From assembly GCF_009909105.1 (NCBI RefSeq), contig NZ_JAAAPK010000002.1, forward strand, positions 477,827 to 541,826: a stretch of 64,000 nt of DNA, given 5' to 3'. This document shows, in pieces, positions 1,386 through 18,984 of the stretch. Below the pieces are notes generated by a model that saw nothing but the letters and a program-made list of their open reading frames with translations, was not told the origin of the DNA and did no database searches. The translations under genes and the position numbers were made by a program. Within the stretch, counting starts at the first letter, position 1; every line of letters begins with the position of its first letter. The stretch comes from Corallococcus exiguus. Its GTDB lineage: Bacteria > Myxococcota > Myxococcia > Myxococcales > Myxococcaceae.

Positions 1386-2692
1386 CCAGCGCCATCGCGT
1401 CTCCGGACGCCATCGTGCTCCGCAACGTGGTGAAGAGCTTCCGGAAGAGCACCATCCGGCGCGAGTACACCACCATCAAGTCGGAGCTCATCCGCCTCCT
1501 GCGTGGCCAGCGCGACACGGACGGCAAGTCCATGATCGAAGCGCTCCGGGGCATTGACCTGGTGGTGCCCCGCGGCAAGACGGTGGGCATCATCGGGCGC
1601 AACGGCTCCGGCAAGAGCACGCTGCTCAAGCTCATCTCCGGCATCTACACGCCGACCACGGGCACCATCGACATCAACGGGCGCATCAGCGCGCTGTTGG
1701 ACCTGGGCGCGGGCTTCCACCCGGACTTCTCTGGCCGGGAGAACATCCTCATCAACGGCATCATCCTGGGGATGTCGCGCGCGGAGGTGAAGGCGCGCAT
1801 GGAGGAGATCATCTCCTTCAGCGAGCTGGGCGACTTCATCGACGAGCCGGTGCGCACCTACTCCAGCGGCATGTACATGCGCCTGGCGTTCTCCGTGGCC
1901 ACGCACGTGGATCCGGACATCCTCATCATCGACGAGATCCTCGCCGTCGGTGACGAGCACTTCGGCAAGAAGAGCCTGGCGAAGATGACGGAGTTCAAGC
2001 GGGCCGGGAAGACCATCGTCATCGTCACCCACGACCTGGGGACGCTGGAGCGCTGGTGCGACCTGGGCGCGTGGATCGACGCCGGGCGCATCCGCGAGTT
2101 CGGTCCGCCCGCGGACGTCATCCGCAGCTACCGCCGCGCGGTGGCGCTGGCGGAAGAGCGCGGCATGTCCATGGAGGCGCCCGCGTTGGCGTCGGACGGT
2201 GGTGCGCTGCCATCGCTGGCGGCACCCCAGGCCGAACCGTCTCCGCTCACCGTGGACGCGGTGCGGCTGCTGGGCCGGGACGGCGCGGCGGTGGAGTTCG
2301 TGGACACCGAGGACGGCTTGGAGCTGAGCGTGGCGTACACCGCGCGCACGCCCGCGCCGGAGCTGGGCCTGGGGCTGGAGCTCTCCCGGGCGGACGGGGT
2401 GCTGGTGCACGCCACGGACACGTTCGCGGAGGACGTGCCCTTCTGCGCGGCGGCGGCCGGCAGCGGGACGGTGCGCTTCGTGGTGGACCGGCTGGGCCTC
2501 ACCGCGGGGCGCTATGCGTTCACGGTGGTGGTGCGCGACCGGGCGGGGCAGGTGCTCGAGAAGCGCGAGGCGGTGTGCTCCTTCGAGGTGCGCTCCAGCG
2601 TGCGGGACGGAGGCCTGACGCGGCCTCCGCACCGGTGGATCGTGGAGGGCGCCGCGGCTCGCGTGGCGCCAGTGCGAGACGTCGGCTCGTGA
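1382..2692 (+). CDS. wzt: O-antigen export ABC transporter ATP-binding protein (Wzt) with a ~190-aa C-terminal extension (putative glycan-binding domain)
   Basis: It has Walker A GRNGSGKST, signature YSSGMYMRLAF, Walker B ILIIDE and an H-loop VTHD. About 190 residues follow the nucleotide-binding domain. The start is coupled to the wzm stop. Confidence 0.85.
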   Translation: MTSAIASPDAIVLRNVVKSFRKSTIRREYTTIKSELIRLLRGQRDTDGKSMIEALRGIDLVVPRGKTVGIIGRNGSGKSTLLKLISGIYTPTTGTIDINGRISALLDLGAGFHPDFSGRENILINGIILGMSRAEVKARMEEIISFSELGDFIDEPVRTYSSGMYMRLAFSVATHVDPDILIIDEILAVGDEHFGKKSLAKMTEFKRAGKTIVIVTHDLGTLERWCDLGAWIDAGRIREFGPPADVIRSYRRAVALAEERGMSMEAPALASDGGALPSLAAPQAEPSPLTVDAVRLLGRDGAAVEFVDTEDGLELSVAYTARTPAPELGLGLELSRADGVLVHATDTFAEDVPFCAAAAGSGTVRFVVDRLGLTAGRYAFTVVVRDRAGQVLEKREAVCSFEVRSSVRDGGLTRPPHRWIVEGAAARVAPVRDVGS

Positions 2693-3540
2693 GCGGCCCT
2701 GCTTCGGCGAATGGGGGAGGGCCGGGCATCTGGCTGGGTATCGTGCTTTACCGGAACCCGGAGCGGGAGCTGGAGCGACTGTGGGAGTCGCTCCGGTGGA
2801 ACCGCGAGGTCCCGGGTGCGCCCGCGTTCCGGGTCGTCTGGATGGACAACTCGCCGGACGACACGCTGCGCGCGCGGGTGGCGCGGCTGGACGCTAAAGC
2901 GGACTACCGGCACGCCGGGAGGAACCTGGGCTTCGGGGCCGCGCACAACCGGCTGATGACGGAGGCCTTCGGCTCGGGTGGGGCGCGGTACTACGTCTGT
3001 GTGAACCCGGATGGACTCCTGCACCCGGACTGCGTGCGGGAGCTGGCGCGGGTGGCGGATCAGCGGGCGGACACGGGGCTGGTGGAGGCCCGGTTGTTCC
3101 CGGACGAGCACCCCAAGCCGTACCATCCTGCGACGGGCGAGACGCCCTGGTGCAGCGGCTGCGTGCTGCTGGTGACGAAGAAGCTGCACGCGACGGTGGG
3201 TGGCTTCGACGAGCGCTTCTTCATGTACTGCGAGGACGTGGACCTGTCGTGGCGGGCGAGGGCCTCCGGGCTGTCCATCCGGGTGGCGCCCTCCGCGCTG
3301 GTGCACCACTACACCGTCACCCGGGAAGAGAGCCCGGTGCGCGAGCGGATGGTCCGCCGCAGCGCGGCCCTGCTCGGGGCGAAGTACGGTGACGCGGCCT
3401 TCACGAACGCCCGCCTGCGGGAGTACGCGCAGCTGGGCGGCGAGCCATTCCAGACGCCCGACATCCTCAAGCCCGGGCGGCGGCTCGCGGGCATCGCGGA
3501 CTTCAGGCACCATCTGGAGTTCGCTCGGAGGCGCTGGTGA
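2689..3540 (+). CDS. Glycosyltransferase family 2 (rhamnosyltransferase-like)
   Basis: A GTG start overlaps the wzt stop (GTGA). The GT2 hallmarks are MDNSPDD, ...YYVCVNPDGLL... and CEDVDLSWR (the DxD/ED region typical of WbbL-like GT2). Confidence 0.65.
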   Translation: MSGPASANGGGPGIWLGIVLYRNPERELERLWESLRWNREVPGAPAFRVVWMDNSPDDTLRARVARLDAKADYRHAGRNLGFGAAHNRLMTEAFGSGGARYYVCVNPDGLLHPDCVRELARVADQRADTGLVEARLFPDEHPKPYHPATGETPWCSGCVLLVTKKLHATVGGFDERFFMYCEDVDLSWRARASGLSIRVAPSALVHHYTVTREESPVRERMVRRSAALLGAKYGDAAFTNARLREYAQLGGEPFQTPDILKPGRRLAGIADFRHHLEFARRRW

Positions 3541-4958
3541 ACGCTCTATCCGAAGGGGCGCCTCCGTCCGCCGTGTCCGCGCGGTGGATGGAGCTGGTGC
3601 TGTCGCGTGCGCACGCGGGCGCGTCGGTGTGCCTGGTGGGCGCGTCGCCAGCGCTGGCGGAGGCCCTGCGGGCTCGGGGCGGCTCCGTGCGGGAGCTGCC
3701 CGGGCCGGAGTGGAAGCGGGGCAAGGGACCCGCTCCGACGCTCGTGGTGCTGGAGGGCGACGCGGTCGAGCGGGTGCTGGAGGAAGGGCTGGAGGCGCTG
3801 CGGCGCGAGGCACCGGGGGCGGAGTTGGTGTTCAGCCTGCGCAACGCCGGTTCGGCGCGGGCGCTGATGGGCGCGCTGACGGGCGAGGCGCCGGTGCGCG
3901 CGGGGCTCTCCGAACAGCGGATGCTGCGGCTGCTGTCCGAGGCCGGCTACCGCGTGGCGCATCGTGAGGTGGTGCCGTGCGCGTCTGGGGGCACGGCGCT
4001 GGCGGAGGACACCGCGCAGGCTCTGCGGGCGTTGCTGGCCCAGCTGTCGCCGTCCACGCAGGTGGAGGAGGGGCTCTACGTCGCGGTGCCGGATGGGCCC
4101 GTGCGCGCGCCAGTGGCGGGGCTGCTCAGCGTCGTCGTCACGGTGGATCCGGGGACTCGGGACGCGGCACTCGATGAGGCCCTCTTCGCGCTGGCCTGTC
4201 AGGAGCAGCAGCCGCTGGAGCTGCTGCTCGCGGCGCCCGAGGGCGTGGACTTGTCCGCCGCGGAGGCTGCGCTGGAGCGCTACGGCAGGCTGGGGTCGTT
4301 CCAGGCTCGCACCGTGCGCGCGCCCTCGGGGGCTCTGTACGCGGAAGCCGTGCGCGAGGCCCGGGGACAGTATCTGGCGTTCGTGGATGCTCGGTGCCTG
4401 GTGTACCCGCGGCACTACTTGGAGTTGGTGCGCGCGCTCCAGACGGGCCGCGAGGCCTGGGCGTTGGCGCGGGCGTTCCGCACCGAGTGGGCGTCCGGTG
4501 CGGGGACCCCGCCGTATGTACGCGCGAAGGTGCCGTTCCCGCTGGGTGAGCGGCTGGAGGTGGAGCACCTGGTGATCCACCCGGAGCTCGTCCACGCGAT
4601 GGTGATCGACCGGAGTCGCATCGGGCCCTTCCCGGTGGCGATGGAGTCGGGACTCGGGGACCTGCCCGCGCGGCTGGGGGCGCTGTTTCCTCCGGTGTTC
4701 CTGGGCGGCATCGCCTCGTGCGAGGTACGCGGGCCGCGCGAGCCGCCGGCCGTCGCCGTGGCTCCGGGGACCTGGCTGGTGCGCCCCCTGGATGCCTGGG
4801 TGGATGTCGTGGCGCGGATCCGCGAAGAGACGCTCCAGGCCCGGGAGTTCCGCCACCGGGTGGTGGACATGCTGAATGCCCGCGTCCACGGCATCCCCTG
4901 GGTCCACGGCACGCTCAAGGCCCTGGCGAACCGGCTCAAATCCGGCAGCGGGCGCTGA
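3537..4958 (+). CDS. Hypothetical protein: N-terminal Rossmann/methyltransferase-like region plus a degenerate GT2-like domain
   Basis: The GTG start overlaps the upstream stop (GTGA). VCLVGASPALAEALRARGGSVRELPG resembles a nucleotide-binding fold. LLSVVVTV...ELLLAAPEG...GQYLAFVDARCLVYPRHYLELV matches the GT2 layout, but with AAPEG in place of VDDGS and DAR in place of DxD. Confidence 0.5.
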   Translation: MNALSEGAPPSAVSARWMELVLSRAHAGASVCLVGASPALAEALRARGGSVRELPGPEWKRGKGPAPTLVVLEGDAVERVLEEGLEALRREAPGAELVFSLRNAGSARALMGALTGEAPVRAGLSEQRMLRLLSEAGYRVAHREVVPCASGGTALAEDTAQALRALLAQLSPSTQVEEGLYVAVPDGPVRAPVAGLLSVVVTVDPGTRDAALDEALFALACQEQQPLELLLAAPEGVDLSAAEAALERYGRLGSFQARTVRAPSGALYAEAVREARGQYLAFVDARCLVYPRHYLELVRALQTGREAWALARAFRTEWASGAGTPPYVRAKVPFPLGERLEVEHLVIHPELVHAMVIDRSRIGPFPVAMESGLGDLPARLGALFPPVFLGGIASCEVRGPREPPAVAVAPGTWLVRPLDAWVDVVARIREETLQAREFRHRVVDMLNARVHGIPWVHGTLKALANRLKSGSGR

Positions 4959-4962
4959 GACG

Positions 4963-7287
4963 ATGGGCACCGCCGACAGTGACGGCCCAAGTGGCTCGTG
5001 GGAGATGCCGGACGTCGAGGCAGCGACGTTGGATCAGGCCGACCGGAAGTCATCCTCTGCTTCGGAGGCCGCGACGTTGGAGCAGTCCGACCGGAAGCCC
5101 TCTTCCTCCGCGCGGGCCGCGTCAGGACCTACCGGCGGACGGGCGCATCCGCCGCGCGATAGCTTCGTCGAGGTGCTGGGCTTCGACGTGCCGCGGTCGC
5201 ACCGCGCGCGCTGGGGCCCGGTCATCACCGCCGCCAAACGTTTGGGGACGCGGGGGCTTTCGCCTTTGCAGCGCTGGGTGCTGGACCGCCAGCTGCGCTT
5301 CGACCTGCGGCTGAGGGCGTTGATCCGTCAGCCGGAGCGGACACTGCCGGAGCTGGCCCGCGAGGAGCTCGGGCGACTCGCGGATCCGCGGCCCGTGGGC
5401 TTGGTGGGCCGGTGGCTTCCCTCCGTGCCCGGGCTGGAGGCGCAGCGGGCCTGGAACCTCGCGGTCGTGGCCCTGCTATCCAGACCTGGATGGCCCCTCC
5501 GGACCGAAGGTGCCGCGGAGGCACTGGACGCGCTGGAGGCCCGCTGCGACGTGCTGGCGCAGGAGGCCGGTGCGGTGGGCCTGCCTTTGTGGCGCGAGCT
5601 GTGGCGGCGGCAGGTCGCCTTCAATCACGCGACCGTCCGCCTGTTGCGGCGCCTCCTGGGCGTGGCCCGTCCGGCCGTGCTCCTGCCCGCGCCGGTGGGG
5701 TACACGCGCGACGCCCTGGAGCGAGAAGCCCACGAGGTCCGTGACGCGACCGCCGCGCTGGCCCGGCTGGAGCGCCGGCCGCTGATCAGTCTGGTCACGC
5801 CCGCCTGGGAGACGCCGGTGGACGTCCTCCGCGCATGCGTCGCGTCCGTGCGCGCGCAGGTGTATCCGCACTGGGAACTGTGCATCGTCGACGACGGCTC
5901 ACGCTCGGCGGCGGTGGCGGACACGCTGCGAGAGGCCGCGGCCGGCGACGCGCGGATCCGCTTCGAGCGGCTGGAGTCGAACCAGGGCATCGCCCGCGCG
6001 ACCAACGCCGCGCTGGCCCTGGCCACCGGCGAGTACGTGGGCTTCCTCGACCACGACGACCTGCTGGCGCCGCACGCGCTGGCGGAGGTCGCGCTGCGGC
6101 TGGGTGAAGCGCCGGACGCGGACGTCGTCTATTCGGACGAGGACAAGGTGGACGCGCAGGGGCTGCGCTTCGCGCCCTACCTGAAGCCGTCGCTGTCTCC
6201 GGAGTTGCTGCGCGCGGTGAACTACGTGTGCCACTTCCTCGTGGTGCGTGCATCGCTGCTGCGTGAGGTGGAAGGCATCCGCTCGGGCTTCGAGGGGGCG
6301 CAGGACCACGACCTGCTGCTGCGCCTGATGGAGCGCACGCGGCGCTTCGAGCACATCCCCCGCGTGCTCTACCACTGGAGGACGCTGCCCGGCTCCACGG
6401 CCACGGACGCCAGCGCGAAGCCCGCGGCCTCCGAGGCGGGACGCAGGGCCGTGGCGGAGCATCTGGCGCGCATGGGGGAGGGCGGCTCGGTGGAGACGGT
6501 CTCGCCAGGGCTGTACCGGATCCGCCACCCGCTCGTGGGCCGTCCCCGGGTGTCCGTGCTGCTGTCAGAAGCGCCCACCGAGGCCGAGCTCACGGCGCTC
6601 CTCGCCTTCACGGACGACCTGGACGTGGAGGTCCGCGTCCCTGTTTCGTCTCCAGCGGCTTCCTCCACCGGCAACGCCATCCGCGTCCAGGTGGACGCGG
6701 CCGCGACCCCGGGCGCCGTGGCGAACCAGTTGCTGCGCGAGGCCCGGGGCGAGCTCATCCTCGTCCTGGAGGCAGGTACGCTCCCGACCGGACCGGGGTG
6801 GCTGCGGGAGCTCGCGTCGCAGGCCTCGCGCCCCGGCGTCGGCGTCGTGGGCGCGCGCATCGTCTCTCCCTGGGGACTGGTGCTGGAGGCCGGGCTGCGC
6901 TTCGACGCCGAGGGCCGGGTGCTGCGTCCCTTCGCGGGGCTGTTCGATCCCACGCTCGGCGCATTCGGCGGCTCGCATTGGCCGCGGGACGTGCGCGCCG
7001 TCTCCAGCGCCTGCGCGATGATCCGCCGCGAGGTCCTGGAGTCGCTCGGAGGTTGGGACGCGGCCTTCACCTCCAATGAGGGACGGGGCGTGGACCTGTG
7101 CCTGCGCGCGGGCGAAGCCGGGCTGCGCGTCCTCTACGCACCCCACGCGCGACTCGTGCGCACCCGTTCCCAGGACGACGCACCCGAGGCCACCCACGAC
7201 GCTGACCGGCTCCGTGACGCGTGGGCCCGCGCGGGACGGGCCGACCCCACCGCACATCCGCGCCTCGGCTTTCTCCAGACACCGTAG
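4963..7287 (+). CDS. Multidomain glycosyltransferase family 2 protein (N-terminal unknown region, canonical GT2, second degenerate GT2-like domain)
   Basis: ISLVTPAWETP...ELCIVDDGS...GEYVGFLDHDDLLAPHAL is a textbook GT2 core. A second domain runs VSVLLSE...ELILVLEAGTLP...GLRVLYAPHARLV. The ATG at 4963 was chosen, just after the upstream stop at 4958. Confidence 0.75.
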   Translation: MGTADSDGPSGSWEMPDVEAATLDQADRKSSSASEAATLEQSDRKPSSSARAASGPTGGRAHPPRDSFVEVLGFDVPRSHRARWGPVITAAKRLGTRGLSPLQRWVLDRQLRFDLRLRALIRQPERTLPELAREELGRLADPRPVGLVGRWLPSVPGLEAQRAWNLAVVALLSRPGWPLRTEGAAEALDALEARCDVLAQEAGAVGLPLWRELWRRQVAFNHATVRLLRRLLGVARPAVLLPAPVGYTRDALEREAHEVRDATAALARLERRPLISLVTPAWETPVDVLRACVASVRAQVYPHWELCIVDDGSRSAAVADTLREAAAGDARIRFERLESNQGIARATNAALALATGEYVGFLDHDDLLAPHALAEVALRLGEAPDADVVYSDEDKVDAQGLRFAPYLKPSLSPELLRAVNYVCHFLVVRASLLREVEGIRSGFEGAQDHDLLLRLMERTRRFEHIPRVLYHWRTLPGSTATDASAKPAASEAGRRAVAEHLARMGEGGSVETVSPGLYRIRHPLVGRPRVSVLLSEAPTEAELTALLAFTDDLDVEVRVPVSSPAASSTGNAIRVQVDAAATPGAVANQLLREARGELILVLEAGTLPTGPGWLRELASQASRPGVGVVGARIVSPWGLVLEAGLRFDAEGRVLRPFAGLFDPTLGAFGGSHWPRDVRAVSSACAMIRREVLESLGGWDAAFTSNEGRGVDLCLRAGEAGLRVLYAPHARLVRTRSQDDAPEATHDADRLRDAWARAGRADPTAHPRLGFLQTP

Positions 7288-7437
7288 AAATGAACAGCGA
7301 ACGCGCCTCCTCCCATGGGGAGCGGGCGGGCTGCCAGCCTTGACGCTCCCGGAGGGGGGTGACATGGAGGACATCCGCCAAGGAGAGGGGGGCGTGCCTT
7401 GCCTGCAGCGAGGGTCGGCCTTCCGGACGCCACCAAC

Positions 7438-10400
7438 ATGCATCCACAGCTCAATCCCCTGGAACACCCCCTCTGCCTCACGCAGCCCCTGCGGCTGCTG
7501 GCCTCCTCAGCCTGGGTGGAGCACGTCCCGTTCGCGATGTTCCTGATGGACCTGCTGCGTCCCGCGACGCTGGTGGAGCTGGGTGCGCACACCGGCGTGT
7601 CCTACTCCGCGTTCTGCCAGGCGGTGGACGCGCTGAAGCTGGAGACGCGCTGCCACGCGGTGGACACCTGGCAGGGCGACCCGCACGCGGGTTTCTACGG
7701 GGCGGACGTGCTCGCGGACCTGCGCGCGCACCATGACCCGCTCTACAGCCGGTTCTCCCAGCTGCACCAGATGACCTTCGACGAGGCCCTGAGCCAGTTC
7801 GCGGACGGCTCCATCGACCTGCTCCACATCGACGGCTGCCACGAGTACGCGCAGGTGAAGGCGGACTTCGAGCACTGGCGCCCCAAGATGAGCGCGCGCG
7901 GCGTCATCCTCTTCCACGACACCCACGTGCACGAGCGCAACTTCGGCGTCTGGCAACTGTGGGAGGAGCTGAAGGGCCAGCATCCCTCCTTCGAGTTCGA
8001 ACACGGCTTCGGTCTGGGCGTGCTCGCCGTGGGCCCGGAGCAGCCGGAAGGGATGCTCGCGCTGACGAGCACCCGGGACGCGGAACGTGAACACGTGCGG
8101 CAGGCCTTCGCCACGCTGGGCGGGCGCCTGACGCTCCTGCTGCACCGGCAGCACCTGCGCGACGCCTACGGCCAGAAGGAACAGCAGGCCGCGGACCACG
8201 CGCGCCAGGCGCAGCAGCTCCAGGCGGAGCTGGACGCCGCCCGTGAAGTGGCACGCGACACCGCCAGCACCCTGCGCGAGTTCGAAGGCCGGCTCGCACG
8301 GCAGGGCCTGGCCCAGCGGATGCTCCAGGAGGAGCTGGGCCGCAAGAACGCCCGCATCTACGAGCTGGATGCGCACGTGGCGCGCCAGGGCTCGGAGCTG
8401 GCGCACATCAACGGCAGCCTCGCGTGGAAGGCCATCAACCGCTACTGGGCCATGCGCGAGCGCGTGCTGCCCCCCGGCACGAAGCGCGGCCACCTCTACC
8501 AGAAGAGCAAGGGCACGCTGCACAAGGTGGGCGCGAAGCTGATCAAGCTGCCCGCGAAGCAGGGAGCGCTCAAGGCACTGCGCGCCGCCAAGGCCGCCCT
8601 CACGCCGGCCACCCCCGCCGCGCCCACCGCCTCCATCTCCGCGGCCGTGGCCCCGAGCGCACCGCTCGCGCCCCCGGCTCCGTGGACCGCGCCGCTGACG
8701 CAGCTCTCCCAGTCCAGCCTGGGCCGGCGCATCCTGATCATCGCGGAGCTGTCGCTGCCCCAGTGCAAGCGCTACCGCGTGGATCAGAAGGTCGCCATGT
8801 TCCACCGGCTCGGGTACGACGTCACCGTCCTGCGCTGGAACGACCACGAGGAGTGCAAGGCCGCGCTCCAGTTCCACGGCCTGGTCATCTACTACCGGGT
8901 GCCCGCGTTCCCTGGCGTGGAGGAGCTGCTGGCGGAGACCAAGCGCCTGGGCGTCCCGCACTTCTTCGACGTCGACGACCTCATCTTCGACGTGGAGGAG
9001 TACCAGAAGAACACCAACGTGCAGCGGCTGCCGGAGAACGAGCGCGAGCTGCTGCTCAACGGCGCGAAGCTCTACCGCAAGGCGCTCAGCCTGTGTGAGC
9101 ACGCCATCGCCAGCACGCCCACCATCGCGGAGCAGATGGCCCGCGTCATCTCCGGCAAGGTCTACGTCGTCGAGAACTGCCTGGACGACGGCATCCTGGA
9201 GCTGGCCCGGGAGATGGAAGCGCGCCCGCCCGCGGTGGACGCGGACACGGTCACCATCGGCTACGGCAGCGGCACCCGCACGCACGACGCCGACTTCGCC
9301 ATCGCCGCGGACGCCATCCTCGCGGTGATGGAGCGCCACCCGAACGTGCGCCTGGCCATCCACGGCTTCCTGGAGCTGCCGGCGGGCTTCGAGCGCTTCT
9401 CCGACCGCGTCTTCCGCATCCCGTTCCTGGACGCGGACGACTACCTGCGCGCGCTCGCGTCCTGGCAGATCTCCATCGCGCCGCTGGAGACGACGGTCTT
9501 CAACGACGCCAAGAGCAACATCAAGTTCATCGAGGCGTCCATCTTCCGCGTGCCCGCGGTGTGCTCCGGCTCCGGGCCGTTCCGGGAGATCATCGACCAC
9601 GGCCGCAACGGCTTCGTCGCCACCACCCGTGAGGAGTGGGAGTCCGGGCTGTCCGCGCTGGTGCAGGACGCGTCGCTGCGCAAGCGCATGGGCGAGGAGG
9701 CCCACCGCAGCGTGATGGCGCGCTACCACCCGGCGGTGGTGGCCACGGAGCGGCTCCAGCCCATCCTCCAGCACCTGCCGCCCGCGCCGCCTCCGCGCCT
9801 CAAGGTCCTGGAAGCCAACATCCTCTTCGCGCCCTTGAGCTTCGGTGGGGCGACCGTCGTCACGGAGCAGCTGGCGCACCAGCTGAAGGCGGAGGGCTGC
9901 GACGTCACCGTGTTCACCGGCATCCTGAACTCGCCGCTGCCCGCCTATTCGGTGGTGCGCTACGAGGCGCTGGGCCTGCCGGTCATCGCCACCCAGGTGC
10001 CGGCCCTCACCGACCGCGCCCAGGAGTACCAGAACCCGCGCATGGGGGAGACCTTCACCCAGGTGCTCAAGGCGGTGCGCCCGGACGTGGTGCACTTCCA
10101 CTCCATCCAGCTCCTGAGCTCCGCGCTCGCCACGGCGTGCGCCGCGGAGGGCATCCCGTACACCATCACCGTGCATGACGCGTGGTGGCTGTGCGAGCGG
10201 CAGTTCATGGTCCGCGAGGACGCCACGTACTGCGGCCAGAAGGGCATCGACCTGCGCGTGTGCACCAAGTGCGTGCCGGACTCGCGCTTCACCTTCAAGC
10301 GCACGTTCGCCCTGCGCAAGGTGCTGGACGGCGCGGCCCTGCTGATGGCGCCCAGCGAGTTCCAGCGCCAGCTCTACATCGCCAACGGCGTCGTGCCGGA

Positions 10401-11055
10401 GCGCATCGTCGTGAACAAGAACGGCGTGCTGCTGCCCACGCGTGCGCGCGCCCCGCGCCCCGCGAACGCCCCCGTGCGCTTCGCCTACCTGGGCGGCCAC
10501 GCGGTGCACAAGGGGTACTTCTGGCTCAAGGACATCCTGGAGTCGGTGCCGGAGTCCGCCTGGGTCCTGAAGATGACCGACATCCAGCTGCGCATGGGGT
10601 CGGCCTCCATCGACGCGAAGGAGTGGAAGGTGAAGGGGCAGGTGGAGGTGGTGCCTCCGTATGATCAGGACGGGATGGACGCCTTCTTCGACGGGGTGGA
10701 CGTGCTGCTGATGCCCTCGCAGTGCAAGGAGAGCTTCGGCCTGACGGTGCGCGAGGCCATGGCCCGTAACGTGTGGGTGGTCACCACGGCGTCAGGCGGC
10801 GTCAGCGAGGACATCGTGGAGGGCGTCAACGGCAACGTCGTGGACATGGCGGACGCCGACGGCTTCCGCCGCGTGCTGCGCGACCTGGTGGCCCACCCGG
10901 AGCGTCTGTCGCGCGCCCCGAACGCCCAGCGCACCACCGTGCGCGACTACGAGACCCAGGCCAAGGAGCTCCACGGGCTCCTGTCCGGCCTGGTGAGTCC
11001 GGCGGCCCGAGGCGCGGCCCGCGAAGACGCCAGCGCCACGGCCATTCAGCGCTGA
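7438..11055 (+). CDS. Large fusion protein: N-terminal class I SAM methyltransferase (Methyltransf_24/CmcI-like), ~100-residue coiled coil, Ala/Pro linker, two GT4 (group 1) glycosyltransferase domains; WbgA/RfbC-like
   Basis: The methyltransferase region is [15 protein letters not shown]...[40 protein letters not shown]. Residues ~240-345 ([33 protein letters not shown]...ELDAHVARQ) have heptad-like charge periodicity. Two GT4 domains follow, each with E-x7-E-type motifs ([39 protein letters not shown]). The ATG at 7438 is preferred over the TTG at 7399. Confidence 0.8.
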
Positions 11056-11118
11056 ACCGGACGGAGCCACCCCGCCTGGAGGCGGGGTGGCTCCTGGAAG
11101 TGCGGAAGCCTTCAGGCC

Positions 11119-12516
11119 CTACGCCGGGCCGTAGTAGCGCTGGTACACCGTGGTGAGCGTCACCGCCGCGGTGAGCAGGATGAAGCAGGCGATGAGCACC
11201 GGCTTGAAGCGCGTCAGCGTGCGCGGTGCCCAGGCGGGCGGGGCCATCGCCACCACCAGCAGCGGCGTGTAGGGCAGCAGGTAGCGGCCCTGCACTCCGT
11301 CCACGTGGTTCGCGCCCGGCGCAGTCCACGCCAGGTACAGCATGGCCTGGATGGCCAGCACGCCCGCCACCGCCACCCCCAGCGCCACCACGCGCTCGCG
11401 CCAGCCCACCTTCGGCGCGGCCCCGTCAGCGTCCAGCACCATCACTCCCAAGAGCAACGCGGCCAGGGCGAAGAGGGCAGGGCGGGGCACCGGCGTGTCC
11501 AGCCAGCCCAGCACGCCGCCGCCCTGGTGCAGGAAGTCCGGCAGCCGCCTCCAGAAGTCACTCACCAGCACGCCCAGCACCTGGAAGGGGTGCGCGCGGA
11601 TGTGGGCCACCTGCGCCACCACCTCACTGGGGCGGAAGATGTCCCGCACGGTGGAGGACCACGCGAACTGGAGCAGCGCGGGCACGGCGACGATGGCGGC
11701 CAGGGCCAGGGCGTAGCGGCCGCGCGTCCCCAGCCGGGTGAGCGGCAGCAGCAGGAACACCAGCGACAGCGGCAGGTAGGCCTGCTTGCACAGCGCCACG
11801 AACACCGCGCTCGCCAGCAGCAGCCCCAGCTGCTTCGCGCCCAGCGGCCCCGGGTGCGCGAAGGTGTAGTGCAGCGACAGCGCCACCAGCAGCAGGCACG
11901 CTGACATCGTGATGGGGTCCGCGGACACCGACGCGCGCTGGAAGAGCACCATGGGCGTGAGCGCCAGCAGCGCGAAGGCCCACCGCTGGAAGGGCATCAG
12001 CCGCAGCGCCAGCGCGGTGAGCAACAGCGCCACCAGCACGTTGCCCAGCCGGCCCGCCCACAGCACCGCCACCGGGGACGCCTCCAACAGCCGCGCGGGC
12101 ACCATGCCCAACGACTGCGGGAAGTAGACCAGCGGGAAGTAGATGGCGGACGCGGCGAAGCGCCACTCCTGGGTGTCCTGGGGCGCCAGCGCCGCGTGCA
12201 TCGCGTCGCTCAGGCGCTGCCGGTCCTGGCGCACCTCGGGATGGCCGCCCACGCCGTCGGACACCTCCTGCGCCACCCGCACGATGCTGCGCGGAAGCTG
12301 CCCGCCCGCGTCCCCCACCGGGATGCGCGTGGCCGTCAGCTGTCCCTCGGAGACCTGGTACGCGCGGTAGAAGTGCGCGGGCTCGTCCGCCACCTGGAAC
12401 GGGGGCGTGAGGAAGCTCAGCACCGCGCCCAGCACGGCCGCCACGACGAGGAAGGCCACGACGGGCGCGATGAAGAACGGACGCAGCGGAGATGGGGGCG
12501 GTGAAGACGGAAGCAT
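11119..12516 (-). CDS. Polytopic membrane protein, DUF2142-like (GT-C-like periplasmic glycosyltransferase candidate)
   Basis: At least 10 predicted TM helices. The N-terminal motif PPFQVADEPAHFYRAYQVSEG resembles the conserved PDE..HF.RAY box of DUF2142 proteins. Co-directional with the two upstream genes. Confidence 0.6.
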   Translation of the reverse strand: MLPSSPPPSPLRPFFIAPVVAFLVVAAVLGAVLSFLTPPFQVADEPAHFYRAYQVSEGQLTATRIPVGDAGGQLPRSIVRVAQEVSDGVGGHPEVRQDRQRLSDAMHAALAPQDTQEWRFAASAIYFPLVYFPQSLGMVPARLLEASPVAVLWAGRLGNVLVALLLTALALRLMPFQRWAFALLALTPMVLFQRASVSADPITMSACLLLVALSLHYTFAHPGPLGAKQLGLLLASAVFVALCKQAYLPLSLVFLLLPLTRLGTRGRYALALAAIVAVPALLQFAWSSTVRDIFRPSEVVAQVAHIRAHPFQVLGVLVSDFWRRLPDFLHQGGGVLGWLDTPVPRPALFALAALLLGVMVLDADGAAPKVGWRERVVALGVAVAGVLAIQAMLYLAWTAPGANHVDGVQGRYLLPYTPLLVVAMAPPAWAPRTLTRFKPVLIACFILLTAAVTLTTVYQRYYGPA

Positions 12517-12542
12517 GGCGAAGGGATGGGCCCGGTGGGCCC

Positions 12543-12959
12543 TCAGACGGCGTGCGAGTCGCGACGGGCGGCGACGGCGGAGGAGACGACTTCAGGACGG
12601 GGCTGCGCACGCGCGGCGCGCTCGGCCTCCGCGGAGGTGAGCAGGGCGACCTCCTGGGCCAGCCGCTTGAGCTGCTGGCGCTGGTCGGCCACCTGGAGGC
12701 TCAACCGGTACACCAGCCACATGAGGCACGTCAGGGCGATGAAGAAGAGGGCGGACGGGGCGTAGTAGATGCCCATGGCCGTCGCCAGCGCGTCGATGCC
12801 CTGGCGCCACAGCGACAGGCCCGCGATGGCCACCGCCACCAGCAGCCACGCGAAGGTGTGCCGCTCGCTGGTGCGCCGGCCCCGGGCCGACCACAGGACG
12901 CTGAAGGCGAAGGCGGCCGCGAAGGCCACGCCGATGAGGCTGGAGCGAAGCATGGGCAT
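12543..12959 (-). CDS. Small membrane protein (DUF2304-like) with C-terminal coiled coil
   Basis: MPMLRSSLIGVAFAAAFAFSVLW... has 3 predicted TM helices followed by QQLKRLAQEVALLTSAEAERAA. The start overlaps the stop of the upstream GT2 gene by 1 nt. Confidence 0.55.
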   Translation of the reverse strand: MPMLRSSLIGVAFAAAFAFSVLWSARGRRTSERHTFAWLLVAVAIAGLSLWRQGIDALATAMGIYYAPSALFFIALTCLMWLVYRLSLQVADQRQQLKRLAQEVALLTSAEAERAARAQPRPEVVSSAVAARRDSHAV

Positions 12960-13657
12960 CAGACGGGACGGACCCGCTCCATGAGCAGGGCGAAGGACAC
13001 CTTCGCCATGTAGAAGGCCGACTTCCACGGCGTCAGCGAGCTGGTGCCGGTGAGGCGCGGGCGCATGCGCACCGGCACCTCCGCGATCGCGAAGCCCTGC
13101 CGCGCCGCCATCAGCACGCTCTCCGGCTCCGGGTAGTCATGCGGGTGGACGCGCGCGAAGAAGCGGATCGCCTGCGGACCGAAGCCCCGGAAGCCGGAGG
13201 TGGGGTCGGTGATGCGGTGGTTGCTCAGCGTGGACAGCAGGCCCGCGAGGAACTGGTTGCCGAAGCGGCGCAGCCACGTGGAGCGGAAGCTGGTGACGCC
13301 CGCGAAGCGGCTGCCGATGACCAGCTCCACGCCCGACTGGAGCGCCTCGCGCAGCGCGGGCACGGACGCCGGGTCATGCTGCCCGTCGCCGTCCATGCGG
13401 ATGACGTGCTCGTACCCGTTGCGGGACGCGAACAGCAGGCCGCTGGCCTCGCCCGCGGCGACGCCCAGGTTGAAGGGATGGCTGAGCACCCTCGCTCCGC
13501 AGTCCCGCGCGCGCTGCGCCGTGGCGTCGCGTGAGCCGTCGTCGACGACGAGCACGTCGAACTCCGGCAGCGCCTCGCGCAGCTCCGCCACCGTCGAGCC
13601 GATGCACTCCTCCTCGTTGAAGGCCAGCAACACGATGAGGCCCTGTCGGGTGTCCAT
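12959..13657 (-). CDS. GT2 polyprenol-phosphate glycosyltransferase (DPM1/GtrB/ArnC-like)
   Basis: LIVLLAFNEEECI...DVLVVDDGSRDATA...MDGDGQHDP...GFRGF is the diagnostic DPM1-like layout. Confidence 0.8.
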   Translation of the reverse strand: MDTRQGLIVLLAFNEEECIGSTVAELREALPEFDVLVVDDGSRDATAQRARDCGARVLSHPFNLGVAAGEASGLLFASRNGYEHVIRMDGDGQHDPASVPALREALQSGVELVIGSRFAGVTSFRSTWLRRFGNQFLAGLLSTLSNHRITDPTSGFRGFGPQAIRFFARVHPHDYPEPESVLMAARQGFAIAEVPVRMRPRLTGTSSLTPWKSAFYMAKVSFALLMERVRPV

Positions 13658-13716
13658 TCAGCCCCCTCCTGCGTCTTCCGGGCTTCTACCGTTACCCGGC
13701 ACGCCGGAACAACCCG

Positions 13717-14640
13717 CTACGCCCGGTTCCCGCTCACGCGAGCGATGAAGATACCCGCGTCCTCCAGGCTCAGGCCTCGGGCCACGGCGCCGAGCCCCTG
13801 GCCCGCCAGGGAGACGAGCGGCCTTGGGAGCTTCCGCAGGGCATGCGCCCTGTCCGCCAGGCTGCCGGCCTCGAAGTCCAGGTCCCCGAAGGCGTCCACG
13901 CGCTCCAGGCCCACGCGCGGGAGCAGGGCCTCCATGGAGTCGTGGGTGAAGTAGCTCTCGTGCGGAGGAAAGGTGCCGGCCTGGTAGAGCTGCTCCAGCA
14001 GCCCCGACGAGGCCACGCCGGCCATGGCACGGGAGACGCGGTAGAGCAGGCCGCTGGCCACCGGCACCTTCAGCACCACCCACTCCAGCTCGGGCGCCAG
14101 CTGTGTGACGAGGTGGCGCACCATGTCCGTCAGGTGCGCACCCGGGAAGTGCTCCACGACGTCCAGTAGCGTGAGGATGCGCGGACGGAAGGGCAGGTCC
14201 TGGAGGGGCAGGGGCCACTGTCCGCCCTCCGGAAGGGGCAGGCGCATGGCGGGGATGCCCGCGTCGCGCATCAGGTTGACGGACAGCTCGGAGATGTCCG
14301 CGCCGGCCAGCTCCTGGACGCCCGCCTCGCGGCAGCCCTCCAGGAACCAGCCCCGGCCCGCGCCGAAGTCCAGGAGCCGCGTGGGCTGGGGGATGTGGCG
14401 GCGCAGGCGCTCGACGATGCTCCGGGCCTGGCGCTGGCGCGTGACGCGCAGCGAGTCCATGAAGCCGCCGCTGTCGTATTGCGCGTGGTAGTCGGCGGTG
14501 TTGCGCGGCGCGCGGTGGGTCGCCACGCGGTGGCCACAGCTCGCGCAGGTCTCCACGTCCAGCCGGGGTCCCTGGAAGGACGGTCGGAGCGAGGACGAAG
14601 CGCAGGCGGGACAGGAGGGGGCGGACATAGGGGGCGGCAC
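13717..14640 (-). CDS. Class I SAM-dependent methyltransferase with N-terminal Cys4 zinc ribbon
   Basis: CPAC...CASCGH zinc-ribbon pair. LLDFGAGRGWFLEGCREAGVQELAGADISE is methyltransferase motif I, followed by LLDVVEHFP (motif II/III). Confidence 0.7.
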   Translation of the reverse strand: MPPPMSAPSCPACASSSLRPSFQGPRLDVETCASCGHRVATHRAPRNTADYHAQYDSGGFMDSLRVTRQRQARSIVERLRRHIPQPTRLLDFGAGRGWFLEGCREAGVQELAGADISELSVNLMRDAGIPAMRLPLPEGGQWPLPLQDLPFRPRILTLLDVVEHFPGAHLTDMVRHLVTQLAPELEWVVLKVPVASGLLYRVSRAMAGVASSGLLEQLYQAGTFPPHESYFTHDSMEALLPRVGLERVDAFGDLDFEAGSLADRAHALRKLPRPLVSLAGQGLGAVARGLSLEDAGIFIARVSGNRA

Positions 14641-14692: not shown

Positions 14693-15232
14693 CTAGCGGC
14701 CCCGTCGCCGCGAAGGCCCGCGGCGCGGCGGTTCCTGCGTGGGCTCCGGCGACGGCTCTGGCGACGGCTTCGGCGAAGGCTCCGGCGTCGCGGCAGGCTG
14801 GCGCGACGTCAGCTGCTCCAGCTGGCGCTCCACCTCCTGGCGCCACAGGGACTGCGTGCGCGCCTGGACCCGCTGGTGCTCGTGGATGAGCGCGAGCGCG
14901 TCCAGGATGGCCTCGTTGAACTCCACCTGCCGCCGGAGCGCCTCGTTGATGAAGGGCTGGAACGCCAGCCGGAAGGCGCGCTTGGCCATCACCAGCGCGG
15001 GCCCCACCACGGGCCGGTGGGACGAAGGCGGGTCCGCGTAGCGCGCGTCGCGCTTCATCCGTGCGCCCTCCAGGAACGGGGGCCACGCGGGGCTGGTGGC
15101 CGGGCCCTGGGTGGCGGCGAGGCGTCGGCGCAGCGCCTCCACCTTCTCGGGCTCTGGCGTGGGCAACCGCTCCAGGGACTCCAGCACCGCCTTCACGGTG
15201 GGGTCGCCGGTGATGAGGTCCTCAGCGCGCAT
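14693..15232 (-). CDS. Hypothetical protein with C-terminal PEPSPKPSPEPSPEP repeat
   Basis: The ORF overlaps the GT4 stop by 11 nt, so it is probably co-transcribed. No recognisable domain; low-complexity PEPS tail. Confidence 0.4.
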   Translation of the reverse strand: MRAEDLITGDPTVKAVLESLERLPTPEPEKVEALRRRLAATQGPATSPAWPPFLEGARMKRDARYADPPSSHRPVVGPALVMAKRAFRLAFQPFINEALRRQVEFNEAILDALALIHEHQRVQARTQSLWRQEVERQLEQLTSRQPAATPEPSPKPSPEPSPEPTQEPPRRGPSRRRGR

Positions 15233-16868
15233 GCGGGTGTCCTCCCACGTCCAGCTCTCTTGCCAGCTCCGCCGCCAGCGACGTCAGGTCATGCCCCGGA
15301 GTGAGCTCCCACAGCCTCTTTCCCAGGACCTGTTTGACGCCCGCGTCCGGCGCGCGGCGGGGCTCCCAGATGCCCGCGACGCGCGTGTCCGGCGGCAGCC
15401 GCGACACCGTGCGCCGGGCCACCTCCTCACCGGCACCCGCGAACAGCAACGGCCCCGGGGCGCACCGCACGCCCGTCTCCAGCGACGACGACGGCGGGCT
15501 GACCCCATCCAACCCGAAGCACGGCTCGTCCGGCGTGAAGCGCCGCACCCGTGTCACGCCGTCGCGCTCATCGCTCGGGGCCAGCTGCAGGGGCATCACC
15601 TGACGGCGCACCGTCCACAGGCTCGCGTCCGGCAGCCGGTCCACCACCGCGCGCGCCAGCTGGGACATGGGCGCATCCGGCGCGGCGTCGAAGCCCGGGC
15701 ACACCACGGTGACGGCGGGCGCGGCGGGCGGACGGGCCGGGGGCGCATCCCCCTGGAGGAAGGGCATGAGCGCCTCGCGCACGCGCTGGGCCACGGACTG
15801 CTGGTCCAGGGACGCCAGTCGCTGGCGCTGCGCCTCCACCACCCGCGAGCGCAGGGCGGGGTCTCGCTCCAGCACCGCCAGCAGCCCCGCCACCTGCGCG
15901 GGGTCGTCCGACAGGGTGGTGAGGCCCGCGCCGCCCATGGTCTCCGGCACCGCCGCGGCGCCGTAGGCCACCACCGGCACGCCCCGGTACATGGCCTCCA
16001 AGAGCGGCACGCCGAAGCCCTCGTGGCGGCTCATGGAGAGGTACGCGGTGGCGGAGGCGAAGCACGCGGACAGCTGCGCGGCGTCCACGCGCCCTAGGAA
16101 CACCACGCGATCCGGGCCCAGTTGCTCGCGCAGCGCCAGCACGGACGCGTCATAGGGCGCGCTGCTGTAGAGCGTCCCCGCGACCAGCAGCCGGCTCTTG
16201 GGCTGGTACAGGCGCTGGTAGGCGGTGAAGACGCGCAGCACGTCCTCCAACCGCTTGCTGGGCACCGTGCGGCCCACGAAGAGCACGTTGGCGCACCCGT
16301 CCTCCACCTGCTCGCGCAGGGCCGTGTCCGGCGGCACGTTGAACGCGTTCCAGTCCACCGCGAAGGGCAGGACGCTCGCGTCCGGGTAGCCCGCGGCGGA
16401 CAGCTCCTCCACGCTGAAGTGCGAGTACGCCCAGGCGTGCGTCACGTGCTCGCGCAGCTGGAGCAGCTCCTCGCGCGCCAGCATGCAGCCGCGGGCGACG
16501 TGGCGGTCCGTGCCCTCGAAGAACCGTTCGGGCGTGACGTTGTGGTACAGCAGCGCCTTGCGGCCCTTCGCCTTGGCCACCAGCGGCACCAGCCGCGACT
16601 CGAAGCTGTGGTGGACGAGCAGCGCGGTGTCCCGGCCCGCGTCGCGCGCGTAGTCGAGGGCGGGGCGCACCTCGTCGCGACACGCCTCGTCCCACTGCTC
16701 GGCGTAGATCTCCGACGCGTATCCCCATCCGCGCAGGAGGTTTCGCAGGTAGCGCACCTGGTTGCCCACGGCGTCGCCCCAGGCCAGCCGCGGCACGAGC
16801 TGGTGGATTGCTCCGGCGCTCGAGGACGCGGTCCCTCGCTTGCTGTTCCAGAGGCTCACGTTGGGCAT
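15222..16868 (-). CDS. Glycosyltransferase family 4 (group 1) with ~170-aa C-terminal extension
   Basis: NVLFVGRTVPSKR...LSMSRHEGFGVPLLEAMYRGVPVVA is the GT4 E-x7-E region. Confidence 0.8.
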   Translation of the reverse strand: MPNVSLWNSKRGTASSSAGAIHQLVPRLAWGDAVGNQVRYLRNLLRGWGYASEIYAEQWDEACRDEVRPALDYARDAGRDTALLVHHSFESRLVPLVAKAKGRKALLYHNVTPERFFEGTDRHVARGCMLAREELLQLREHVTHAWAYSHFSVEELSAAGYPDASVLPFAVDWNAFNVPPDTALREQVEDGCANVLFVGRTVPSKRLEDVLRVFTAYQRLYQPKSRLLVAGTLYSSAPYDASVLALREQLGPDRVVFLGRVDAAQLSACFASATAYLSMSRHEGFGVPLLEAMYRGVPVVAYGAAAVPETMGGAGLTTLSDDPAQVAGLLAVLERDPALRSRVVEAQRQRLASLDQQSVAQRVREALMPFLQGDAPPARPPAAPAVTVVCPGFDAAPDAPMSQLARAVVDRLPDASLWTVRRQVMPLQLAPSDERDGVTRVRRFTPDEPCFGLDGVSPPSSSLETGVRCAPGPLLFAGAGEEVARRTVSRLPPDTRVAGIWEPRRAPDAGVKQVLGKRLWELTPGHDLTSLAAELARELDVGGHPHAR

Positions 16869-16982
16869 GGCATTTACCCCTGGCCCGGACCGGCCACAAG
16901 TGGTCGCGCGCTTGCCTTGACGGGGATCCTTCCCTCCGCTACGGAGGGCGCTTTCTCTCGAAGTGCGAGTGGTGGCTTGTCA

Positions 16983-18008
16983 ATGAACGTCCTGGTGACA
17001 GGGGGCTGCGGCTTCATCGGCTCCAATCTGGTGAAGTACCTGCGCCGCGAGCGGCCTGACTGGAAGATCATCAACCTCGACAAGCTCACGTACGCGGGCA
17101 ACCTCGAGACCCTCGCCGACCTGGAAGGTGACCCGAAGCACGTCTTCGTGCGCGGCGACATCGCCAACCGGGAGCTGGTGGAACACCTCATCGTCCAGCA
17201 CGGCATTGACGCCGTGATGCACCTGGCGGCCGAAAGCCACGTGGACCGCTCCATCCTGGGCCCGGAGGTGTTCATCAACACCAACGTGCTGGGCACCCAG
17301 CAGCTGCTGGAAGCCTGCCGCGCCCGGGGCGTGAAGCGCTTCCTGATGGTCTCCACCGACGAGGTCTACGGCTCGCTGGGCCCCACGGGCGCCTTCACGG
17401 AGACCTCTCCGCTGCAGCCCTCCAGCCCGTACTCGGCCTCCAAGACGTCCTCGGACCTGATCGCGCTGGCCTACCACCACACGTTCAAGATGGACGTGGT
17501 GGTGACGCGCTGCTCGAACAACTACGGCCGCTACCAGTTTCCGGAGAAGCTCATCCCGCTGATGGTGGTGAACGCGCTGCACGACAAGCCGCTGCCCGTC
17601 TACGGCGACGGCGCCAACGTGCGCGACTGGCTCCACGTGGAGGACCACTGCCAGGGCCTGCTGGTGGCGCTGGAGAAGGGCCGCGCGGGCGAGGTCTACA
17701 ACATCGGCGGCGGCTCCGAGCGCCGCAACATCGAGATCGTCAAGGGCATCCTGGGGCTGCTGAAGAAGCCCGAGTCGCTCATCCAGTACGTGGCGGACCG
17801 GCCGGGCCATGACCGCCGCTACGCCATCGACCCGACGAAGATCCGCACGGAGCTGGGCTATCAGCCGAAGCACACCTTCGAGCAGGGGCTGGCGGACACG
17901 GTGACCTGGTACATGGAGAACCGCGCCTGGTGGGAGCGGGTGACCAGCGGCGCCTATCGCCAGTACTTCGACACCCAGTACAAGGCCCGTCTGCAGGGGC
18001 GGGGCTGA
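16983..18008 (+). CDS. rmlB: dTDP-glucose 4,6-dehydratase
   Basis: MNVLVTGGCGFIGSNLV..., a YSASK active-site triad region, and full-length similarity to RfbB/RmlB. The ORF-track N-terminal extension (16122-16982) was rejected. Confidence 0.95.
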   Translation: MNVLVTGGCGFIGSNLVKYLRRERPDWKIINLDKLTYAGNLETLADLEGDPKHVFVRGDIANRELVEHLIVQHGIDAVMHLAAESHVDRSILGPEVFINTNVLGTQQLLEACRARGVKRFLMVSTDEVYGSLGPTGAFTETSPLQPSSPYSASKTSSDLIALAYHHTFKMDVVVTRCSNNYGRYQFPEKLIPLMVVNALHDKPLPVYGDGANVRDWLHVEDHCQGLLVALEKGRAGEVYNIGGGSERRNIEIVKGILGLLKKPESLIQYVADRPGHDRRYAIDPTKIRTELGYQPKHTFEQGLADTVTWYMENRAWWERVTSGAYRQYFDTQYKARLQGRG

Positions 18009-18012
18009 CGCC

Positions 18013-18912
18013 ATGCGCTTTCTCGTCACGGGAGCCAACGGCCTGGTGGGCAGCCGCGTCTGCGCGCAGCTGACCGAGCGCGGTCACGAAGTGGTGGGCC
18101 TGGGGCGCGGTCCCCGGCGCACGGGCGGCACGCACGGCTACGTGGAGGTGGACCTCACGCGCGAGCAGGACGTGGCCGCGGCCATCGCCCAGGCCCGTCC
18201 GGAGGCCATCATCCACCCCGCCTCCATGACGGAAGTGGACGCGTGTGAGAAGGACCCGGACGCGGCCTACGCGGCGAACGTCCACGCCACGGCGGCGGTG
18301 GCCCGCGCGGCGAAGCTCGCGGGCGCGCACCTGGTGCACGTCTCCACGGACTACGTCTTCGACGGAGACGCCGGGCCGTATTCCGAGGACGCGCTGCCCA
18401 ACCCGCGTGGCGTGTACGCGCTGACCAAGCACATGGCCGAGCAGGCGGCGCGCGTGTTCGCGCCGGGCTGCGCCATCGCGCGCACGGCCGTGGTGTACGG
18501 CTGGCCGGCAGCGGGGCGTCCCAACTTCGGGGCGTGGTTGGTGGGGGCGTTGGAGAAGGGCCAGCCGGTGAAGCTCTTCGAGGACCAGGTGGTGTCCCCC
18601 AGCTTCGCGGACAGCGTGGCCGCCATGCTGGTGGAGCTGGGTGAGCGCCGGCTTGGTGGCGTGTGGAACACCTGCGGCGGCACGGTCATCGACCGGGTGG
18701 GCTTTGGCCGGGCGCTCTGCGAGGTGTTCGGCTTCGACGCGTCGTTGATCACGCCCACGCGGATGGCGGACCTGAAGCTGGCCAGCCCCCGTCCGCTGCG
18801 CAGCGGCCTCAAGACGGACAAGGTGCGTACGGAGCTGAAGGCCCAGCCGCTGGAGTTGGCGGAGTCCCTGGCGCGCTTCCACGCGGCCTGGAAGGCGCAC
18901 CGCGCCGGTTGA
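18013..18912 (+). CDS. rmlD: dTDP-4-dehydrorhamnose reductase
   Basis: MRFLVTGANGLVGSRV... and a STDYVFDG motif. Typical RmlD length, sitting between rmlB and rmlA. Confidence 0.9.
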   Translation: MRFLVTGANGLVGSRVCAQLTERGHEVVGLGRGPRRTGGTHGYVEVDLTREQDVAAAIAQARPEAIIHPASMTEVDACEKDPDAAYAANVHATAAVARAAKLAGAHLVHVSTDYVFDGDAGPYSEDALPNPRGVYALTKHMAEQAARVFAPGCAIARTAVVYGWPAAGRPNFGAWLVGALEKGQPVKLFEDQVVSPSFADSVAAMLVELGERRLGGVWNTCGGTVIDRVGFGRALCEVFGFDASLITPTRMADLKLASPRPLRSGLKTDKVRTELKAQPLELAESLARFHAAWKAHRAG

Positions 18913-18984
18913 GCATCGCGCGCGTGGCGGCCGGGCCGCGCGCATCCGTTTCGCGGCCGCGCCGTGGAACACAGGGGAGCACGC

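Follow-up and report, generated by a model that had tools for sequence, protein, structure and literature searches.

A predicted methyltransferase, helical spacer and glycosyltransferase fusion in an O-antigen locus of Corallococcus exiguus: a candidate enzyme for both extension and termination of glycan chains

The 64,000-nucleotide stretch of Corallococcus exiguus DNA analysed here (contig NZ_JAAAPK010000002.1, positions 477,827 to 541,826 of the forward strand; hereafter the window, in whose coordinates positions are given) has a G+C content of ~70% and carries on its plus strand a large open reading frame (ORF) at 7438..11055, called from coding statistics and homologues. The predicted protein of 1205 amino acids joins an N-terminal S-adenosylmethionine (SAM)-dependent O-methyltransferase through a long helix to two C-terminal glycosyltransferase (GT) modules. 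We give a probability of about two in three to the reading that it is a single-polypeptide enzyme for both chain extension and chain termination in the ABC-transporter-dependent O-antigen pathway of this strain. The ORF is clearly coding because its G+C content at third codon positions is 0.95. It ends with the stop codon at 11053-11055, and the 1206 residues given by a first-pass annotation of the window are the codon count with the stop included. Two start codons are possible. No obvious Shine-Dalgarno sequence precedes ATG 7438 in the stretch 7381-7440, whereas an AGGAG (7381-7385) stands 13 nt upstream of a TTG at 7399, which would yield 1218 codons, 13 more than the ATG version. Database homologues are annotated with both starts (1205 and 1218 aa). 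A C. exiguus protein annotated as "glycosyltransferase" (P0001) matches over the full length with 97% identity, and identities of 70-93% were obtained with proteins or genomic matches belonging to other species of Corallococcus and to Pyxidicoccus.

Profile searches and structure prediction confirm the order of parts that the first-pass annotation had described, with a methyltransferase at the N-terminus, then a long spacer helix, and a pair of GT modules at the C-terminus. Pfam matched Methyltransf_24 at aa 46-162 (E 1.6e-25), Glyco_trans_1_2 at aa 627-771 (E 6.8e-9), Glyco_transf_4 at aa 802-997 (E 1.1e-22) and Glycos_transf_1, whose best stretch is aa 1060-1161 (E 2.5e-26); NCBIfam returned sub-threshold matches to GT family 4 (GT4) and a weak SMC match at aa 238-326, and nothing else. 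Two AlphaFold2 models, one of the full-length protein (1200 aa, alignment of 28 homologues, mean predicted local distance difference test [pLDDT] score 81) and one of aa 1-350 (alignment of 33 homologues, mean pLDDT 90), agree on the layout: a Rossmann-type methyltransferase at 27-210, a helix at 214-326, and two complete GT-B folds at 432-777 and 789-1186.

The methyltransferase domain (aa 27-210; 7516..8067, plus strand) is of the COMT-like Methyltransf_24 type, as had been proposed and as both the Pfam match and the AlphaFold2 fold bear out. Among the conserved columns of the homologue alignment are the SAM motif V46-E-L-G-x-x-x-G53 and residues D76, D127, H130, D132 and H160, a set compatible with a metal-dependent O-methyltransferase. 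This fold class takes in sugar O-methyltransferases, such as the rhamnosyl O-methyltransferases SpnH and CalS11 and the polysaccharide methyltransferase MeT1. Searches of the protein against Pfam and NCBIfam gave no match to a kinase family. The domain stands directly N-terminal to the long helix, which starts four residues past the last methyltransferase helix (210 to 214), and is thereby at the end of the predicted coil distal to the GT modules.

The helix is continuous over 113 residues in both AlphaFold2 models (aa 214-326; 8077..8415, plus strand) and constitutes a predicted coiled-coil spacer or "ruler", in agreement with the earlier expectation of a coiled coil of ~100 residues followed by an Ala/Pro linker, and of an extended helical element between the methyltransferase and GT regions. 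A single heptad register runs from ~228 to 325 (~100 residues), with 50-83% hydrophobic residues or Ala at the a and d positions and few elsewhere. The hydrophobicity of the helix has a period-3.5 power about four times the shuffle mean and above ~99% of shuffles (p ~0.012). Because this Fourier peak, while significant, is not the global maximum, we gave greater weight to the register analysis and the AlphaFold2 helix. An alpha-helix rises 1.5 A per residue, so the spacer would be ~17 nm long if extended. Across 28 homologues, the segment corresponding to G194-S327 varies from 87 to 204 residues while GT module 1 stays at 358-367 residues, and a variable spacer beside a module of fixed length is what a ruler-type element would be expected to look like.

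The helix ends in a conserved motif, S327-x-x-W-K...R-Y-W..R.R..P.GT.R in the homologue consensus, in which S327 is invariant. Together with the basic helices that follow (328-343, 349-366 and 375-387 in the AlphaFold2 model), this motif makes up aa 327-387 (8416..8598, plus strand), a candidate segment for docking to the membrane or to partner proteins; the net charge of aa 327-420 is +14. Beyond it lies an apparently flexible linker at aa 388-420 (8599..8697, plus strand), 61% Ala plus Pro. The full-length model shows low confidence and little regular structure up to ~420, with pLDDT below 50 over aa 364-410. In a Lichenicola locus (L039), a short coil precedes the GT pair at the N-terminus of its protein and ends in SVSWRLTTPIRY. 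The adjoining gene encodes a methyltransferase-coil-GT-B-GT2 protein of 1195 aa, with SASWRLTRPARI at the end of its coil; the counterpart of both coil ends in the C. exiguus protein begins at S327. The motif S-x-(S/A)-W-(R/K)...R is thus found at coil ends in the C. exiguus protein (window 8416-8500) and in L039 at 4107-7694 (minus strand) and 9440-12442 (plus strand). These shared coil ends suggest that the coil and its terminal motif mediate assembly between partner proteins, and the motif may serve in docking or oligomerisation. A strict regular expression for it matched 13 of 147 homologous cluster representatives but missed the C. exiguus protein itself, and was too narrow to inform on its distribution.

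Of the two GT modules, which the first-pass annotation had both placed in GT4, the second fits that assignment, which is less secure for the first. Module 2 (aa 789-1186; 9802..10995, plus strand) is a canonical GT4 enzyme by Pfam (Glyco_transf_4 and Glycos_transf_1) and Foldseek, and has the motif E1098-X7-E1106. A Foldseek search with the whole model retrieved the retaining GT4 enzymes MshA (3c4q, 2e-16), GlgM, the methylmannose-polysaccharide (MMP) mannosyltransferase 7qsg and BshA. Module 1 (aa 432-777; 8731..9768, plus strand) has a GT-B fold of two Rossmann halves in the AlphaFold2 model, and its invariant residues include D513, D514, G610-S-G612, K692, K696 and E699; it is without a canonical EX7E motif, and the GT4 label is looser for it because Glyco_trans_1_2 is its only Pfam match. 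Four cysteines of module 2 (C919, C932, C942 and C945; window 10192-10272) are invariant and lie in an insertion of lower AlphaFold2 confidence in the N-terminal half of the module, where they may form a zinc-binding loop.

Upstream and on the same strand are wzm, which encodes an ABC-2 permease (606-1385; Pfam ABC2_membrane; 68% identical to Myxococcus Wzm), and wzt (~1382-2692), which encodes an ABC ATPase (ABC_tran, E 7e-22) with a C-terminal carbohydrate-binding module (CBM; Wzt_C, E 7.7e-14, 52.3 bits against a Pfam cut-off of 30.4) predicted to bind carbohydrate. Genes of the dTDP-L-rhamnose pathway, in the order rmlB, rmlD, rmlA and rmlC, follow at ~16980-20408 (plus strand; Pfam). In longer Corallococcus loci, genes for SLT, TPR/AIM24 and CDP-OH_P_transf proteins lie upstream of wzm, as they do in the genetically defined Myxococcus wzm-wzt-wbgA-sgmR-wbgB locus, whose gene names and O-antigen role are taken from bioRxiv 10.64898/2026.08.28.747804. 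This shared upstream synteny identifies the locus in the window as the myxobacterial O-antigen locus, variable downstream of wzt, and it upholds, along with wzm and the Wzt_C-bearing wzt, the O-antigen setting that had been assumed. Compared with Myxococcus Wzt (L080 10001-11314), whose gene has syntenic flanks, the nucleotide-binding domain (NBD) is 77% identical and the CBM 34%. The divergence of the CBM fits a different polymer or chain terminus, and judged from these comparisons the O-antigen locus behaves like a cassette that varies while its flanks are conserved.

The Myxococcus locus also bears on the identity of the protein, which had been suggested to be a homologue of M. xanthus WbgA/RfbC. 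WbgA (MXAN_4621), SgmR (MXAN_4620) and WbgB (MXAN_4619) are encoded in the same chromosomal O-antigen locus downstream of wzm-wzt. Myxococcus WbgA, a protein of 1275 aa encoded after wzt, consists of two GT2 modules and a WsaF_N/WsaF_C (WsaF-like GT4) region and lacks both Methyltransf_24 and a coil. When WbgA was compared by BLASTP with four segments of the C. exiguus protein (methyltransferase, coil, GT module 1 and GT module 2), no match was obtained at E<=1e-3. Instead, WbgA aligns with the product of the neighbouring gene at 4876-7287 (plus strand), with 38% identity over 759 aa. Because of this result and the difference in architecture, the proposed homology does not hold, and the WbgA homologue of the Corallococcus locus is reassigned to 4876-7287. 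The latter gene encodes a protein with two GT2 modules by Pfam, lacking the C-terminal WsaF-like GT4 domain of WbgA, and is a probable partner polymerase component. In Myxococcus, the methyltransferase is a separate protein, SgmR (684 aa; L080 15246-17300), and not fused as in C. exiguus. The N-terminal domain of SgmR is of the Methyltransf_11/12/23/25/31 type rather than Methyltransf_24, and its large C-terminal part is unannotated; SgmR may be the functional counterpart, as a separate terminator, of the fused methyltransferase.

A fused methyl-capping, ruler and polymerase protein had been thought not to have been dissected biochemically, but two published cases contradict this. WsaE of Geobacillus stearothermophilus NRS 2004/3a, characterised in vitro, combines an N-terminal 2-O-methyltransferase that caps the chain with two rhamnosyltransferase domains that assemble the repeat, and its cap has been proposed as the export signal for Wzt (PMC2943079, PMC3898925). 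ORF6 of Klebsiella pneumoniae O7 (KpO7), dissected by Kelly et al. in 2024, contains a methyltransferase-kinase, a CBM, a coiled-coil ruler and two GT2 modules (PMC11231755). We compared both with the C. exiguus protein by their published descriptions. Like WsaE, the C. exiguus protein carries an N-terminal O-methyltransferase and two GT domains on one polypeptide and is encoded in a wzm/wzt/rml locus; however, the product of WsaE is a poly-L-rhamnan attached to an S-layer protein of a Gram-positive host, methylation by WsaE is length-independent in vitro, and PMC2943079 and PMC3898925 describe no coiled-coil ruler in the enzyme. Like KpO7 ORF6 (PMC11231755), it has an N-terminal methyltransferase terminator, a central coil, two C-terminal GT modules and a wzm/wzt/rml locus where another protein provides a further GT, but its terminator would be methyl-only, kinase-free and COMT-like, and its modules are GT-B/GT4 instead of GT2. 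WbbB of Klebsiella/Raoultella O12 likewise unites a terminator, a coiled coil and two GT modules that polymerise the chain (PMC11231755). Where the C. exiguus protein has a methyltransferase, WbbB has a beta-3-deoxy-D-manno-oct-2-ulosonic acid (Kdo) glycosyltransferase (GT99) as its terminator, and its GT modules are of other families (GT102 and GT103). In the WbdD and WbdA systems of E. coli O9a/O8 (Klebsiella O3/O5), a methyl (O8/O5) or methyl-phosphate cap terminates the product of a multi-GT4 polymerase, the coiled-coil ruler of WbdD is proven by length engineering, and the cap is read by the CBM of Wzt. Unlike WbdD of E. coli O9a, the C. exiguus protein has no kinase domain beside its methyltransferase in Pfam or NCBIfam. 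The TET operon of Pseudomonas syringae, a D-/L-rhamnan common polysaccharide antigen (CPA) system, contains the same transport, elongation and termination gene set (wzm, wzt, a wbdA-like GT gene and an O-methyltransferase gene), and fused GT/O-methyltransferase genes have been reported in that species (PMC7820976). The novelty of the C. exiguus protein is therefore its choice of modules within a known design: a kinase-free, methyl-only cap, GT-B/GT4 modules and a myxobacterial host.

The reading of this protein as terminator, ruler and polymerase in one is well supported by its domains, its helix, its locus and the variability of its spacer; from these features we infer the function itself, including the oligomeric state, methylation at the terminus and not at internal residues, the ruler function, the donor sugars and the docking to the membrane. 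We propose that the two GT-B modules are held on the membrane's cytoplasmic face by the basic segment after the coil, by partner proteins, or by both, and that, probably in cooperation with the WbgA-like two-GT2 protein encoded next to them, they would extend an undecaprenyl-linked glycan. The 113-residue helix would oligomerise into a coiled coil and keep the metal- and SAM-dependent sugar O-methyltransferase ~17 nm away, and O-methylation at the non-reducing end would then occur only on chains long enough to reach it. The methyl cap would end extension and mark the chain for export through the C-terminal CBM of Wzt. Terminator, ruler and polymerase logic of this kind is proven experimentally for WbdD/WbdA, WbbB and KpO7 ORF6 (PMC11231755), and the capping role of the methyltransferase is established for WsaE (PMC2943079, PMC3898925). 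Recognition of the modified chain terminus by Wzt-type transporters through their CBM is described in PMC9445017 and PMC11231755.

Several observations weigh against this proposal. In the full-length AlphaFold2 model the pLDDT of the helix falls to 43-66 over aa 260-340, the heptad periodicity statistic is moderate (p ~0.01), and the models are of a monomer, the coiled-coil oligomer being our supposition. The methylated terminus and narrow modal length of the Corallococcus O-antigen are predictions. GT4 enzymes are retaining, and from a dTDP-beta-L-rhamnose donor they would give beta-L-rhamnose. The rhamnosyltransferase WsaF, unlike module 2, lacks the EX7E motif. Together, retaining GT4 chemistry and the EX7E motif of module 2 speak against the two modules building a simple alpha-L-rhamnan. 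Finally, the two modules may not be the whole polymerase, or the polymerase at all, because five or six further GT modules are encoded in the cluster.

The last point leads to the alternative that survives best, possible but in our judgement doubtful, in which the two GT modules are adaptor or branching transferases, the WbgA-like protein (4876-7287) and other GTs polymerise the chain, and the fusion protein is mainly a terminator and scaffold, resembling WbdD with extra GTs. Transferases for such a division of labour are at hand: in addition to the two-GT2 protein, Pfam places a GT2 at 2689-3540 and possibly a weak GT2 at 3537-4958 (both plus strand), and a GT4 at 15222-16868 (minus strand). 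The rml genes suggest alpha-L-rhamnose linkages, which would be made by inverting GT2 and not retaining GT4 enzymes, and homologues of the fusion protein in distant phyla are accompanied by a WbgA-like protein, as they often are in Burkholderiaceae loci (L012, L013, L021, L034, L035 and L042). The distribution of the modules points the other way. In a scan of one genome per species, which yielded 499 relatives, and in tblastn searches with each module across 79 loci, the GT1-GT2 pair proved to be a conserved unit that retains ~45% identity as far afield as Acetobacteraceae, Nitrosomonas, Sulfurovum and Verrucomicrobia, and many loci have no other large multi-GT protein adjoining wzm/wzt. The pair also resembles the dual-GT4 polymerase WbdA and the paired GT modules found in WbbB and KpO7 ORF6. 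Its frequent neighbours are wzm/wzt and rmlBDAC, the rml genes being present in ~20 of the 79 loci. Fusion of the methyltransferase to the pair was found in Myxococcaceae, Variovorax, Burkholderia, Caballeronia, Paraburkholderia, Halomonas/Vreelandella and several alphaproteobacteria; the two are separate in many other loci, where a neighbouring gene encodes the methyltransferase, which may sit in a coiled-coil protein.

It is less likely still, and on balance unlikely, that the methyltransferase decorates internal residues while the helix serves only for oligomerisation or as a scaffold and kinetics or another factor determines chain length. The O-antigen of M. xanthus, which contains partly 6-O-methylated N-acetylgalactosamine, offers an analogy for internal methylation. 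The conservation of the module also favours this alternative. A search of 1.84 billion proteins, counted as cluster representatives, gave 10,800 representatives of the methyltransferase module at E<=1e-3 and 3,466 at E<=1e-30. With the query's own cluster representative P0001 (99%) set aside, the module is 57-68% identical in the best 150, and in most of these it begins within the first ~30 residues. Such identity despite very different downstream modules is unusual and would be unexpected for an enzyme that reads different glycan termini. Among the 147 representatives retrieved, the median length is 845 aa and 51 reach or exceed 1000 aa; the architecture is common. The methyltransferase (window 7438-8073) is far better conserved than the GT modules attached to it, being 55-59% identical to homologues of Halomonas, Burkholderiaceae and alphaproteobacteria, as against ~40-45% for the GT modules. 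Two features speak against internal methylation, namely the presence of a Wzt_C CBM, as in systems that export capped chains only, and a spacer length that is plastic in evolution while the domains are fixed. That the locus makes a glycan other than the O-antigen of lipopolysaccharide (LPS), such as a capsule-like or protein-linked polymer, is highly improbable, since its chromosomal position and flanks match the Myxococcus wzm-wzt-wbgA locus assigned to LPS O-antigen synthesis, even though the same machinery builds the S-layer glycans of Geobacillus and the cell-wall rhamnans of streptococci and no ligase or primer gene was identified within the window.

The remaining genes of the cluster lie between the fusion gene and the rml genes, on the minus strand. 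A DUF2142 polytopic membrane protein (11119-12516; Pfam), a DUF2304 protein of the GacJ family (~12543-12950), a GacI-like GT2 (12959-13657; Pfam) and a Methyltransf_23 protein (13717-14640; Pfam) are followed by a protein without an assigned family (14693-15232) and by the GT4 described above. The cassette at 11119-14640 resembles streptococcal GacI/GacJ/GacL, which put side-chain sugars on polyrhamnose outside the cytoplasm. All of it is missing from two otherwise syntenic loci (L003 and L004), both of which keep the fusion gene. The second methyltransferase (13717-14640), considered as a candidate terminator, is for this reason the less likely one, and it is the fused methyltransferase that stays with the core system. 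Further downstream, a stretch of the window at ~28000-34000 has a G+C content of 0.56-0.62, against ~0.70 elsewhere, and could be horizontally acquired DNA. Published papers on the Corallococcus O-antigen and on the rhamnose-rich O-antigen of Paraburkholderia provided no usable structural information.

The protein described here belongs to a large and routinely annotated family, and it adds little to the general principle that terminator, ruler and polymerase can reside on one polypeptide, which WbbB, KpO7 ORF6 and WsaE have established. For Corallococcus, it is a probable determinant of the length and capping of the O-antigen, in a myxobacterial locus in which Wzm and the NBD of Wzt are conserved while CBM, GTs and terminator are exchanged. 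The conserved methyltransferase module and the motif shared by the coil ends of partner proteins provide a starting point for a simple model of a fused terminator-polymerase that is kinase-free and methyl-only. As a more tentative extension, for which we would claim less than even odds, the COMT-like Methyltransf_24 domain, the coil and the coil-end motif (S-x-x-W-K/R...R) may represent, beside the WbdD and KpO7 types, a separate third class of glycan chain terminator, perhaps the most widespread one, in which the motif would dock fused or split partners into hetero-oligomeric polymerase-terminator complexes and the length of the ruler would evolve by insertions and deletions. If so, such terminators would set the strain-specific O-antigen lengths of myxobacteria, which may be relevant to gliding, predation or kin recognition.

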